Origin: Candidatus Izemoplasmatales bacterium
GTDB lineage: Bacteria > Bacillota_I > Bacilli_A > Izemoplasmatales > Hujiaoplasmataceae
Direction: 5' to 3'
DNA: 22,938 nucleotides
NCBI GenBank assembly: GCA_050177605.1
Contig: JBFXGX010000003.1
Coordinates: 1 to 22,938, forward strand
Under the pieces are notes generated by a model, which had not been told where the DNA came from, searched no databases, and was given only the letters and a program-made list of their open reading frames with translations. Positions within the stretch are counted from its first letter, which is position 1; each line of letters begins with the position of its first letter. The translations under genes were made by a program, and so were the position numbers. Shown one piece after another: positions 1,387 to 5,500 of this stretch.

Positions 1387-2373
1387 TTATTTACTGCGTA
1401 ATTTAAATTTTTTTCTTTCTACAAGCTCATTGCTCATTTTGAGATAATTTTCATATCTCGAATACTCGATTATTTGATCACTCACAGCTTGAATGACGGC
1501 ACATCCGACTTCATTCGTATGTGTACAATCTCGAAAATGACAAGTTGATGCATATTCATAAATATCTTGAAACGTATCTGAAAAATCTGCATCGTCAATT
1601 TGAATTTCCCGCATGCCAGGCATATCAATTATCGCAAAATGATTCGAACTATAAAATAGATTTCGTGAAACAGTTGTATGTCTACCACGATCATCTTTTC
1701 TTGTTTCATTGGTCTTTTGAACATCTTCATTAAGCAAGTAATTTGTGATGGTAGATTTTCCAACACCCGATGAACCAATAATGGCAATGGTGGTGTCTGG
1801 AACTAAAAATTGATTGAGTTCTGAAAATCCATCTTCCAGGTTCGATGAAGTAGTACAAACTTCAACGTTTGGAAAATACTGACTAATCTGACTTTTCTTA
1901 TCCTCAGCATCATCTACTAAATCTCTTTTGGTTAATACAACAATTGGCTTTGCTTTTGATTTTTCAATAATAGATAGATATCTCTCTAACCGACGAATAT
2001 TAAAATCGTTATTTAGTCCCATCGCAACCCATATTTGGTCGATATTACTTGCAAGATACTGGACTTTTCCACTACTACCAGGGCTTTTCCTTTTGAGTAA
2101 AGTCACGCGTTCAAAAACCTTGTGGATGATTGCTCTTTTTTCATCTTGAAAAGCTATCTCAATATAATCTCCAACTATCGGCATATCTTCTTCTTTTTTC
2201 GTATTATAGAAAAATTTCCCTGAAAGTTGAGCTAAGTAGAATTGTTCTTCTGTTTGTACGTAATAATGATTTGCCTGTACGGAGATGACTCTAGCAAGCT
2301 TGCGATCATCTCTTTGAATCATTTTTTGAAAATGAATCGGAAAGATGACCGTTTGAAAATGTGTTTCTAACAT
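1387..2373 (-). CDS. rsgA: Ribosome small subunit-dependent GTPase A (RsgA/YjeQ family), long-form paralog type
   Basis: N-terminal OB-like region (PIVGDYI); circularly permuted G motifs TKRD (G4), GSSGVGKS (G1), GRHTT (G2), DMPG (G3); Zn finger CHFRDCTHTNEVGC; DFNIRRLERYL motif; RBS AAAGGAGG. Confidence 0.95.
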   Translation of the reverse strand: MLETHFQTVIFPIHFQKMIQRDDRKLARVISVQANHYYVQTEEQFYLAQLSGKFFYNTKKEEDMPIVGDYIEIAFQDEKRAIIHKVFERVTLLKRKSPGSSGKVQYLASNIDQIWVAMGLNNDFNIRRLERYLSIIEKSKAKPIVVLTKRDLVDDAEDKKSQISQYFPNVEVCTTSSNLEDGFSELNQFLVPDTTIAIIGSSGVGKSTITNYLLNEDVQKTNETRKDDRGRHTTVSRNLFYSSNHFAIIDMPGMREIQIDDADFSDTFQDIYEYASTCHFRDCTHTNEVGCAVIQAVSDQIIEYSRYENYLKMSNELVERKKFKLRSK

Positions 2374-2377
2374 GATT

Positions 2378-2455
2378 CCTCCTTTCCGGAGGCAGGTTAC
2401 TTACGTATGCCTCCTAAATAAAATGGTTTAAAAATTGTATGTTCAATCATACGTA
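2378..2455 (-). promoter_or_regulatory. Putative translational attenuator (mutually exclusive RNA pairings) in the rsgA leader
   Basis: mRNA segments: 1 UACGUAUG (2455-2448) pairs with CAUACGUA (2409-2402); GGAGGCA (2414-2408) pairs with UGCCUCC (2394-2388); CCUCC (2392-2388) pairs with the rsgA SD GGAGG (2382-2378). Confidence 0.65.
2397..2450 (-). CDS. 17-aa leader peptide (uORF) MIEHTIFKPFYLGGIRK upstream of rsgA
   Basis: Strong RBS GAAAGGAGTGA (2466-2456) 5 nt before ATG 2450; TAA at 2399-2397; lies between the promoter and the rsgA RBS. Confidence 0.75.
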   Translation of the reverse strand: MIEHTIFKPFYLGGIRK

Positions 2456-2480
2456 TCACTCCTTTCATGTATCTAATGTA

Positions 2481-2509
2481 ATCATAATCTATTTTCCTTA
2501 AATAGACAA
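2481..2509 (-). promoter_or_regulatory. sigma70/sigmaA promoter for leader-rsgA
   Basis: TTGTCT (2509-2504), 17-nt spacer, TATGAT (2486-2481) on the minus strand, just downstream of the giant gene's terminator. Confidence 0.65.
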
Positions 2510-2543
2510 GAAAAAGTTGAGGTTTGACCCTCAACTTTTTTGT
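2506..2543 (-). terminator. Intrinsic terminator of the giant repeat-protein gene
   Basis: Perfect 12-bp inverted repeat AAAAAGTTGAGG (2511-2522) / CCTCAACTTTTT (2529-2540) right after the stop at 2545, with T-runs in both directions. Confidence 0.88.
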
Positions 2544-2544
2544 T

Positions 2545-5500
2545 TTAAATTAATCCGTAATGTGTTAATACTTCGTTGATACCCGCTTCAGTTAAGAATG
2601 TCGTATTGTCATTATTCATGTAAGATGTATCAGCTGGCCAATAAAGGTCAAATGGATCATCCGCAAGCATCATAGCTTCTAATTGATCTGTCATAATATT
2701 TCTAACGATCATCGAATCAAGAACAATGTCACGTTCTGCTGGAGTAAGTGAAGCTACCGCATTGACATCAATACTTACATTCGAGATATCACCCGTTGCT
2801 AAAACATTTGTTGCTTTAATAAATGCTTTAATTTCTACTTTAGTGATAATATCAGTTAAATCATAAACATCTTCATAAGCTAAATCAGGAATCTTCGTAT
2901 TAATATTACTATTTCCTTTCAGCATATTGTCGATAGTGACATGCATTGAACCACTGCCAAGGACTGTGTCTAACTGTGCATCTGTTAAACTAGTTACAAC
3001 GCTTGCGTCCATTGCACCTGAGAAATCACTAACTCCTAACGTGCTTAAGGAGGTGAGTAATGCTTTTAATTCTAATTTTTCAATTTGTACTGTACTACCT
3101 ATGCCAACACTGAGTGTTTCTCTAAAGTAAGTTGGTACGATTAAACTACCACTACCTGCAGCTGCAGATTCATCAAGTGCACCCGTTAAGATCTTATCTG
3201 AAATAGTAGCTTGCATTGAATAACTTGCAAGTAATAAATCATAATCTGCTGCGAAGACGAGGTTCGCGGTAATGGTTATGTTACTAAAGTCTGTTAATCC
3301 AAGAGCATCAAGCGAATCTAGGATGGCTTTCATTTCATTAATTTCAATATAAGTTACATCAGATTCTACGATTCGGATTGTGACTGTTCCTAAAATATTA
3401 GCGTTTGGAATAATTAAGTTTCCACCCGTTCCGTTCAGTAACTTATCAGAGAGTGTAGCCTGGATTGAATAAGAGAGTAATAATGTATCTGGGTCATCAA
3501 AGAATTTCGATGAATCGATTGAAGAACCAAAGTTATCTAAGTCAGTGTATCCCATCGCTAAGAAACTATTAATTAAAGCTTTGATTTCTGACTTGATGAT
3601 AAAGTCTGTTGTACTGACAGTTTTTTGAATACGTTCTGCTTCCACTTCTCCTACTGGAGTGTAAAGTGGAACGATTAATACTGCATCATCTAAATCAAGT
3701 AAGGTTTGTGAAATCGTCGCATGCATTGAAGCGCTGGTTAATAAAGTATCTTGGTCTGCTTCTAAAGCAAGACTTGAAATCGTAATTGAGCCAGTGAATG
3801 CTGTAATATCGTTAACGCCTAAAACTTCTAGAGCATTAATAATCGCCTTGATTTCATCTTTATAGATAAATAACGTTGATGAGACGGTCGCTTTAATCGT
3901 AATTCCATCAATATCCGTTGTCGGTACAAGTAATACGCTTGGTCCTAAATCAGTGATTTGTTTTGTAATCGTCGCGTGCATTGATGCACTCGTTAATAAG
4001 ATATTTTGATTTGTTTCATTAAATAAGTTAACAAGTGATACGGTACCATTAAATGCAGTAATGTCGGTGATGCCTAATATCTCAAGTGAATTAATGATGG
4101 CTTTAATTTCATCTTTATAAATGAAGAATGTTGCTGAAACTGTTGCTTGAATTGGATTATTATCTACATCCGTATCAGGAATAAGTAAGACAGAAGGTCC
4201 AAGATCATTAATTTGCTTTGTAATTGTCGCATGCATCGAGGCACTTGATAATAAAATATTCTGATTTGTATCATTAAATAAGTTAACAAGTGATACAGTA
4301 CCATTAAATGCTGTAATGTCAGTGATACCTAAAATCTCAAGACCGTTAATTAATGCCTTTATTTCTGTTTTGTAGATAAATAATGTTCCGCCAACGGTAG
4401 CTTGAATACTTGTTCCAGCAACATCCGTATTTGGTACAAGCAATACAGTAGGTCCTAAATCAGTTATTTGTTTTGTGATTGTCGCATGCATTGAAGCACT
4501 TGATAAAAGAATTGTTTGGTTCGCTTCGCCATAGATGAGCGACAAATCAATACTTCCATTGAAACTGTTAATATCATCAATTCCAAGTAATTCTAATGCT
4601 TCAAACATCGCATCAATTTCATCCTTAACAATATATTCAGTTTCTGTTGATAAAGCACCAACCGTCAAACGAATCACATTACTATCTTGATCAAGTGTAG
4701 GAACTTTTAAAGTAGCTTCCCCTAAATCAAGTAGTTGTTTCGTGATTGTTGCGTGCATTGAACTACTACTTAATAATACAGTGCGATTTGCTTGTTCATA
4801 GAATAAAGTAAGATCGATACTACCATCAAAGCTATTAATATCGGTAATACCAAGGATTTCTAATGCTTCAAACATCGCATGTATTTCAGGTTTAGAAACG
4901 AATTCAGTAGTTTCTCCAACCCCACCTGTTGTTAAACGAATCACAGTCGTATCGTCGTCTGCGAAATAAGGAACGGTAAGTGTTGCACTTCCTAAGTCAA
5001 ATAGTTGTTTTGAAATTGTCGCATGCATCGAGGCACTTGCAAGTAAGATATCACGATTGCCTTCAGCATAGAATAATGATAAGTCAATACTTCCATCAAA
5101 CGTATTAATATCTGTAATACCAAGCACTTCTAATGCTTCAAACATCGCATCAATTTCTGCTTTTAAGACAAACTCTGTTTCGAATCCAACAGCACCTGTT
5201 GTAAGACGGATTGCGAGTGAATCTTCGCTATCTCTATAAGGAATCGTAAGCGTTGCACTTCCTAAATCAAATAATTGTTTTGATATTGTCGCGTGCATTG
5301 AGGCACTGGATAACAGAATATCTCGATTGTCTTGAGTGTAGAATAAACTTAAATCAATATTACCATCAAAGGTATTGATATCGGTAATGCCAAGAACTTC
5401 TAAAGATTCAAACATAGCGTCAATTTCAGTTTTTAATACGAATTCAGTTTCGAATCCAACTTCACCAGTTGTAAGACGAATGTCAAGTGTGTCTAAACTA

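Follow-up and report, generated by a model that had tools for sequence, protein, structure and literature searches.

Inducible ribosome-protection and ribosome-rescue factors are usually recognised by leaders that contain a short upstream open reading frame (uORF). In the ermC and ermB leaders, a short leader open reading frame (ORF) with its own Shine-Dalgarno sequence (SD) precedes the gene, no terminator is present, and the RNA can pair in alternative ways: pairing of segments 3 and 4 (3:4) hides the SD of the gene, pairing of segments 2 and 3 (2:3) frees it, and a ribosome held on segment 1 selects 2:3. In trp-type attenuation, a ribosome at the end of the leader frame covers a strand of the ON structure and leads to OFF, whereas an earlier hold leads to ON. 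Here, we describe a leader found on the minus strand of a 22,938-nucleotide (nt) stretch of DNA from a Candidatus Izemoplasmatales bacterium (assembly GCA_050177605.1, contig JBFXGX010000003.1, positions 1 to 22,938; hereafter the window), ahead of the gene of a second, divergent paralog of the GTPase RsgA that is called RsgA2 below. We consider it reasonably likely that this element is a uORF-dependent translational attenuator, and leaders of this kind probably switch rsgA2 on when ribosomes falter.

The leader is compact and all of its parts lie between a promoter-like sequence and the start codon of rsgA2. The promoter-like site, TTGTCT-N17-TATGAT (2509-2481), is a consensus match only, with 9 of 12 positions in agreement, and implies a putative transcript start near 2474. 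It is followed by the strong SD of the uORF, GAAAGGAG (2466-2459), 8 nt 5' of the uORF AUG, and by the uORF itself, MIEHTIFKPFYLGGIRK (2450-2397), 17 codons and a stop, recognised by ORF reading and by comparison with homologous loci; a gap of 23 nt separates it from the ATG of rsgA2 at 2373. Segment 1, UACGUAUG (2455-2448), spans the uORF AUG and can pair with the 3' portion of segment 2. Segment 2, GGAGGCAUACGUA (2414-2402), occupies codons 13-16 of the uORF and consists of GGAGGCA (2414-2408) overlapping CAUACGUA (2409-2402), so that its 5' part is a decoy SD pairing with segment 3 and its 3' part pairs with segment 1. Segment 3, UGCCUCC (2394-2388), is an anti-SD whose partner is either the decoy or the SD of rsgA2, and the latter, AGGAGG (2383-2378, with the GGAGG core at 2382-2378), is segment 4 and lies 4 nt before the ATG. 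The CCUCC of segment 3 and the GGAGG of segment 4 are 5 nt apart and form the hairpin CCUCC-GGAAA-GGAGG. A preliminary description of this DNA, made from its letters alone, had listed the promoter, the strong SD, the uORF, the 23-nt gap and the four segments with their complementarities (8 nt for 1:2, 7 nt for 2:3, a 5-nt loop for 3:4), and each of these was found exactly where it had been placed. A rule-based scan of positions 1200-2800 found no terminator between the uORF and rsgA2, its only find being a terminator at 2540-2511, upstream of the leader.

The comparison with ermC and ermB is close in several respects, since the window leader likewise has a leader ORF with an SD, four segments, the choice between 3:4 and 2:3, and no terminator. 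The differences concern where the ribosome would be sensed and what would be regulated. In the window, segment 1 coincides with the uORF start codon, and therefore the ON state would be selected by a ribosome arrested while initiating or within the first codons, rather than on a mid-frame arrest motif; furthermore, the decoy of the rsgA2 leaders copies the SD within the uORF and keeps a constant spacing to the uORF stop, and the regulated gene encodes a GTPase and not an rRNA methyltransferase. As in trp-type attenuation, a ribosome reaching the end of the leader frame would cover the ON strand; unlike the trp case, the window uORF has no run of codons for a single amino acid and the output would be masking of an SD instead of termination.

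Among more recently described systems, the uORF leader of Bacillus subtilis vmlR is induced by the cognate antibiotics and, constitutively, by ribosome-assembly defects (PMC9226507). The likeness is that uORF occupancy by the ribosome picks the RNA structure, that the target is a ribosome-acting factor and that vmlR is induced by compromised translation (PMC9226507); the closest resemblance is that of the terminator-type rsgA2 leaders of a sister clade, discussed below, whereas the window leader has no terminator between uORF and gene, has a uORF of 17 codons and precedes a gene for an RsgA-family GTPase and not for an ABCF ATPase. No sequence or Rfam relationship between rsgA2 leaders and the vmlR leader was found in Rfam searches of the window and 18 homologous loci. 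The Escherichia coli uORF toiL, upstream of topAI-yjhQ, responds to at least five antibiotic classes, tetracycline stalling ribosomes at its start codon, and it reads general translation stress, with stalls at various positions altering the pairing near the downstream ribosome-binding site (PMC12121999), as would be the case here. It differs in belonging to another host group, in controlling a toxin-antitoxin pair and in adding Rho-dependent termination, and the accessible portion of that paper describes nothing like the triple of decoy SD, anti-SD and SD of the rsgA2 leaders (PMC12121999). As regards the protein, the RsgA/EngC paralog SCO6149 of Streptomyces coelicolor is expressed in a WblC- and tetracycline-dependent way, unlike the housekeeping SCO5211 (PMC7157823). 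By analogy, SCO6149 may serve as a precedent for a second RsgA copy induced by translation stress; SCO6149 is run by a transcription factor, rsgA2 by a candidate cis-acting leader on the gene itself. In a literature search covering mostly open-access papers, no description of a leader, uORF or attenuator was found for any rsgA gene. The class of mechanism is known, while there appears to be no earlier description of the gene family under control, of the decoy-SD layout or of how widely it occurs.

The product of the gene following the leader (2373-1387, minus strand) is a 328-amino-acid (aa) RsgA-family GTPase, on the basis of profile matches to TIGR00157 (157.4-158 bits, cut-off 100), PF03193 (144 bits) and PF16745 (28.9 bits). 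It carries the N-terminal OB domain, the circularly permuted GTPase domain and the C-terminal Cys/His zinc motif, and C278, C283, H285 and C291, together with GSSGVGKS, are invariant. The regulated gene had been called rsgA in the preliminary description, which holds for the family but not for the individual gene, as the genome has two RsgA-family genes above the TIGR00157 cut-off and the better scorer (235.6 bits) is on another contig. The canonical rsgA of the same genome is located at G000:C1:130802-131476, and its product and the window RsgA2 share 29% identity. A tree built from 118 paralog and 10 canonical rows separates these groups by one branch with a support of 100% in the Shimodaira-Hasegawa-like approximate likelihood ratio test (SH-aLRT). 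The better-scoring second copy, the low identity and this split rule out the identification of the window gene as the housekeeping rsgA orthologue; by sequence, it is a second, divergent paralog. The name RsgA2 already serves as a gene label in Lactiplantibacillus plantarum, for lp_1687 (PMC7278804). The window protein has a long branch (1.33 changes per column, against a median of 0.28), is merely 34-47% identical to the copies from its own genus, and its position inside the paralog group is not settled by the tree.

The paralog is widespread. Matches at the paralog level (E <= 1.8e-47) were found in 19 of 40 sampled relatives, and the gene is present in 41 of the 71 genomes of the family, including that of the window. 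In a search of a species collection, 578 of 601 candidate stretches encode an RsgA2 relative, and the best 80 of these 578 belong to Bacillota, Synergistota, Fusobacteriota, Mycoplasmatota and other groups, the Bacillota among them including Lactococcus, lactobacilli, Peribacillus, Lysinibacillus and Halobacillus. A search of plasmid proteins gave many RsgA matches, on large replicons and mislabelled chromosomes, and was the source of the Listeria locus described below.

The DNA upstream of these loci contains short ORFs behind strong SDs nearly throughout, and conservation of the uORF was evaluated by a rule asking for an ATG start, an SD 5-12 nt upstream, 11-30 codons, an end at most 135 nt before the gene and a score above a threshold, the start codons of rsgA2 and the choice among uORFs being heuristic. 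A uORF of this description precedes rsgA2 in 33 of 42 loci of the family and in 39 of 78 loci of the broad set from other phyla, while the reverse-complement controls gave 0 of 42 and 1 of 78. Within the genome of the window, 9 of 608 genes have such a uORF and rsgA2 is the top match; ahead of canonical rsgA the same rule found none in 11 loci. The uORFs of the homologous loci are 16-24 codons long and share a strong SD with a G/U-rich spacer, and their stop usually lies 40-55 nt from the gene. Many leaders of Bacillota and Synergistota also have a conserved GA(G/U)AUUGU, encoding Asp/Glu-Ile-Val/Ala, about 10 nt before the decoy (columns about 64-78 of the alignment A2 introduced below; for example L070, L126, L074 and L088), which is absent from the window. 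The minimum free energy (MFE) structures of two Bacillaceae leaders show this motif, or the 5' part of the uORF, paired with the 3-4 loop, a pairing that was rejected as a general feature, as it gave no overall gain for cognate partners (19 of 40 leaders). In several Lachnospiraceae loci (L078, L098, L100, L115, L140) and in others, rsgA2 is close behind another coding region and has no uORF within 300 nt; any leader would therefore have to precede an operon.

What the leaders without a terminator have in common is the triple of decoy, anti-SD and SD. Of 55 such leaders, 41 have a CCTCC in the interval from uORF stop to SD, and all 41 also contain GGAGG inside the uORF; in a control on 569 genes of the window's genome, asking for CCTCC at most 60 nt upstream of the SD and GGAGG farther upstream, 6 have such a CCTCC and 1 has both. 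Counted back from the uORF stop, the decoy GGAGG, in columns 88-92 of alignment A2, ends at a distance of exactly 11 nt in 27 of these 41 and of 10 nt in the window, and the reading frame G-GAG-G is common to 33, while the distance from the uORF stop to CCTCC varies from 1 to 38 nt. To judge by these distances, the uORF stop is positioned relative to the decoy and not to the anti-SD. The spacing from decoy to stop equals that from an SD to the P site, which suggests that the anti-SD of a terminating ribosome would engage the decoy, and such an engagement could either prolong the OFF signal or favour a restart at rsgA2.

The covariation of the pairings was studied on 40 aligned leaders with the triple (MAFFT alignment, A2), in which the cognate segments of each leader were compared with those of the other 39. 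The strongest signal is that of the 2:3 duplex, with -16.5 kcal/mol for cognate against -12.9 kcal/mol for non-cognate partners and the cognate better in 37 of 40 leaders; the values are -12.3 against -11.1 kcal/mol (28 of 40) for the 3:4 duplex and -6.8 against -5.6 kcal/mol (25 of 40) for the uORF start region with segment 2. By comparison, the control pairings of the uORF start region with segment 3 (-8.57 against -8.53 kcal/mol) and of segments 2 and 4 (-3.49 against -3.38 kcal/mol) each favour the cognate in 19 of 40. The covariation score of the 2:3 helix is 0.191 against 0.089 in shuffles, with none of 500 shuffles reaching it and a maximum of 0.086 for slid partners, and at its first flanking pair 36 of 40 leaders have paired bases, with six pair types represented. 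In two genus-level relatives, a change of the decoy from GGAGG to GAGGG is matched by a change of the anti-SD from CCUCC to CCUUC, so that both pairings are kept. Overall, in this alignment 2:3 covaries, 3:4 is mostly invariant and 1:2 is lineage-specific. The alternative pairings freeing or hiding the SD, as proposed in the preliminary description, are thus present and the first of them has covariation behind it; its expectation of a conserved uORF and covarying pairs upstream of homologues was borne out for the uORF and for 2:3, and did not extend to 1:2.

A covariance model built from alignment A2 and the 2:3 helix gave 21 matches in 20 of the 151 genomes of the order (E <= 0.01); 17 of them are directly upstream of rsgA2, including places outside the seed, and the remaining 4 are the weakest (E 0.003-0.007). 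Among 57 non-seed loci, 15 were matched, all on the strand of the gene, and 13 of these matches end at or just before the gene; in L096 and L080, about 460 and 115 nt separate the model match from the protein match downstream. One of the 15, of 37.7 bits, is at the rsgA adjoining pnp of Listeria monocytogenes (L143). In this locus (2321-2434), an 18-codon uORF, MAIVKMENLIINTGVFYL, has GGGGG 11 nt before its stop and is followed by CUCCC and then by the SD AGGAGC, that is, the same layout with letters altered on all three strands. The window's own leader is a weak member of the model (30.7 bits, E 2e-4 within the window with filters off), and the filtered searches of its genome and of the order missed it; in its own genome, 150 of 1999 first-look candidates were scored and gave 6 matches, with E >= 0.28. 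In Rfam, positions 2200-2700 of the window had no match better than E 0.82, all far under the gathering score, and the only confident match in the 18 homologous loci was to an unrelated thiamine pyrophosphate riboswitch.

From these elements we infer that the uORF is translated and that the leader works as follows. One anti-SD, segment 3, would pair either with the decoy GGAGG, located in the final third of the uORF (2:3, ON), or with the real SD (3:4, OFF). A ribosome translating the uORF to its end would occupy the decoy, allowing 3:4 to form and keeping rsgA2 off, whereas a ribosome detained at the start or within the first few codons would cover segment 1 and leave the decoy free to trap the anti-SD, making the SD available; in most relatives, the failure of a ribosome to arrive in time would have the same outcome. 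In this way, the leader would report on the ability of ribosomes to begin and complete a short test frame, and RsgA2 would be raised when they cannot, for example in the presence of inhibitors arresting ribosomes at or near initiation, or of defective subunits.

The direction of the switch was examined by equilibrium folding with modelled ribosomes. In free RNA, 23 of the 40 leaders have 2:3 and 17 have 3:4 at a probability above 0.5; a ribosome on codons 1-4 changes these counts to 24 and 15, one on the last sense codons to 0 (by construction) and 38, and one at the stop to 2 and 23. The robust part of the model is that a ribosome finishing the uORF would drive the anti-SD onto the SD, the ON state being what remains otherwise. 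The 116-nt leader of the window folds at -23.3 kcal/mol against -16.5 kcal/mol for shuffles, of which 6 of 200 fold as well (z -2.3), and its MFE structure includes 2:3; the isolated helices have -6.25 (1:2), -11.5 (2:3, the 7 base pairs GGAGGCA:UGCCUCC) and -9.0 kcal/mol (3:4), and the RNA is predicted to be bistable. In the free window RNA the predicted probability of 2:3 is 0.71, that of 3:4 0.29, and the SD is unpaired at 0.19; a ribosome on codons 1-4 changes these values to 0.84, 0.15 and 0.50, one on the last sense codons before the final one to 0.00, 0.85 and 0.11, and one at the stop to 0.00, 0.00 (segment 3 being covered) and 0.63. When segment 1 is blocked, a check that the preliminary description had suggested, or when an initiating ribosome is placed, the 2:3 state alone remains.

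Several of the results weigh against this reading and limit its strength. The preliminary description took 1:2 plus 3:4 as the OFF state; the 8-base-pair 1:2 helix does exist, but the best structures with 2:3 enforced and with 1:2 plus 3:4 enforced are equal (-21.6 kcal/mol each) and 2:3 prevails in the free RNA, so OFF is not a clear ground state. The 1:2 duplex, at -10.1 kcal/mol, is matched by 5.2% of 1000 shuffles, which is borderline, and the helix is not general, cognate partners doing better in 25 of 40 terminator-less leaders. The covariation of 3:4 is modest (0.098 against 0.075, with 9 of 500 shuffles reaching it) and its core is invariant; moreover, the 40 leaders were selected for GGAGG and CCTCC, hence only the flanking pairs are independent evidence. 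In the models, an early stall barely shifts the balance between the two structures (from 23 to 24 of 40), which means that ON is not clearly selected by it in most relatives; the 2:3 state of the window leaves the SD in a weak pairing with U-rich uORF sequence; and the SD unpaired at 0.63 with the ribosome at the stop fits a coupling of the two translations as well as a repression. These figures depend on folding at equilibrium, the ribosome being assumed to cover positions -12 to +14 relative to the P site, or from -18 onwards when it initiates. As for the uORF counts, the thresholds of the rule were fixed after the data had been viewed, and related genomes are non-independent samples. Among public sequencing runs, a search for this DNA gave four DNA entries and no RNA entry. 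Finally, across lineages the leader peptides show no sequence conservation beyond the residues dictated by the RNA elements and no arrest peptide. Of the ermC logic evoked in the preliminary description, the leader ORF with its SD, the masking by 3:4 and the 2:3 alternative are therefore retained, while the clear ground state and the conserved arrest peptide of ermC and ermB have no counterpart in the rsgA2 leaders.

A second architecture bears on the question of where control would be exerted. One clade of the protein tree, which holds 23 of the 24 terminator-type rows, has an intrinsic terminator after the uORF, while the other leaders, that of the window included, have none. The consensus of this clade contains a helix between the uORF start region and the 3' part of the uORF, followed by the terminator; the window has a 1:2 helix like this one and therefore comes closest to the ermC picture. 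In several leaders of the clade, the last codons of the uORF, its stop and the following bases form a helix with the terminator, in its 5' arm and loop, and a ribosome at the stop abolishes this predicted antiterminator. The terminator is predicted to be formed in 22 of 25 leaders with a ribosome at the stop, in 18 of 25 in free RNA and in 15 of 25 with an initiating ribosome; against a general switch stands the prediction, from the same equilibrium folding, that 18 of 25 of these terminators form regardless of the ribosome. By analogy with trp-type attenuation, in both architectures a strand of the ON structure would lie under the ribosome completing the uORF. The two occur within the same genus as the window (L011 and L012 as opposed to L023). 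Three Lactobacillaceae loci (L081, L116, L133) have no uORF of 16-24 codons and show instead mini-ORFs of 4-5 codons (MLFI, MSDIQ, MSVSR) with strong SDs, 160-190 nt upstream of rsgA2, with hairpins and a terminator-like T-run downstream, in what looks like a third architecture, as far as the sequences tell.

The main rival to an attenuator is positive coupling, in which the uORF would deliver ribosomes to rsgA2: the terminating ribosome would melt the leader, be retained by the internal GGAGG, 10-11 nt ahead of the stop, and restart at rsgA2, 23 nt downstream, so that expression would follow uORF translation. The fixed position of this GGAGG in 27 of the 41 leaders, set against the variable distance between stop and CCUCC, is what such a restart would lead one to expect, and the window adds to it a short gap and the prediction that segment 3 is covered and the SD largely unpaired once a ribosome has reached the stop. 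The relatives fit less well, as 3:4 is still predicted in 23 of 40 with the ribosome at the stop and their usual gap is 40-55 nt. Furthermore, with the terminator of the sister clade lying between the uORF and the gene, restart cannot be the control point there, and an anti-SD that covaries with the decoy would serve no purpose in simple coupling. On this evidence we regard coupling as unlikely.

A leader that binds a protein or a ligand is much less probable still. The CCUCC motif is also part of the 16S rRNA 3' end, and the known site of action of RsgA on the 30S subunit is close by. RsgA2 or another factor might thus bind an RNA mimicking this end, namely the CCUCC strand of segment 3, which some relatives lengthen to ACCUCCUU, or a small molecule might bind the fold, the uORF being incidental. 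Yet conservation extends to the uORF, its strong SD and its narrow range of lengths even where the sequence has changed, pairing with the SD fully accounts for the CCUCC, no unpaired pocket was observed to be conserved, and no Rfam family was matched by the window (2200-2700) and the 18 homologous loci. The absence of any regulation, with the uORF and hairpins as chance features of an AT-rich intergenic region or as a simple stabilising 5' structure, is hardly credible, since the moderate statistics of the window alone (fold z -2.3; 1:2 equalled by 5.2% of shuffles) are outweighed by the recurrence of the same layout before the same type of gene across phyla and not elsewhere and by the covariation of 2:3, while the protein identities of 34-47% argue against one recently transferred element.

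The surroundings of the leader, all on the minus strand, delimit a small unit. Upstream, a 2679-aa ORF read from the sequence (10584-2545), whose sole Pfam signal is DUF7881_C at 26.7 bits, under the cut-off of 27, ends at the intrinsic terminator already mentioned (2540-2511, a 12-pair stem followed by a T-run), which, to judge by these features, insulates the rsgA2 unit from upstream transcription. Downstream of rsgA2, a hairpin followed by U7 (1377-1346; -12.7 kcal/mol, z -4.5) is a likely terminator that was absent from the list of the rule-based scan, and the rsgA2 unit would therefore be monocistronic. In addition, ACAUGA (2468-2463), close to where the transcript is predicted to begin, can pair over all 6 nt with UCAUGU (2376-2371), which spans the rsgA2 start codon, and this helix occurs in the MFE structures of both switch states.

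If rsgA2 is under the control of a uORF-dependent attenuator, the leader implies that many bacteria, including Listeria and lactobacilli, treat RsgA2 as a stress-induced and not as a housekeeping protein, and a 30S-directed protein family is nominated for a role in tolerance to ribosome-targeting drugs or to assembly stress. The leader would also be a compact RNA device, made of a decoy SD, an anti-SD and an SD, whose fixed decoy-to-stop spacing bears on the interaction between a terminating ribosome and an internal SD. A broader view, possible but doubtful at present, is that RsgA2 and its leader form a widespread and undescribed "translation-capacity" circuit in several phyla, in which a test frame of 16-24 codons, equipped with an extra-strong SD and, 11 nt ahead of its stop, with another SD, would probe both the engagement of mRNA by the 30S subunit, through the 3' end of 16S rRNA, and the completion of a short round of translation, and in which failure would cause a 30S-acting GTPase to be made that rescues or re-checks the subunits. 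Were this true, RsgA2 would be the small-subunit counterpart of the inducible ribosome rescue and protection factors of the HflXr or ABCF type.

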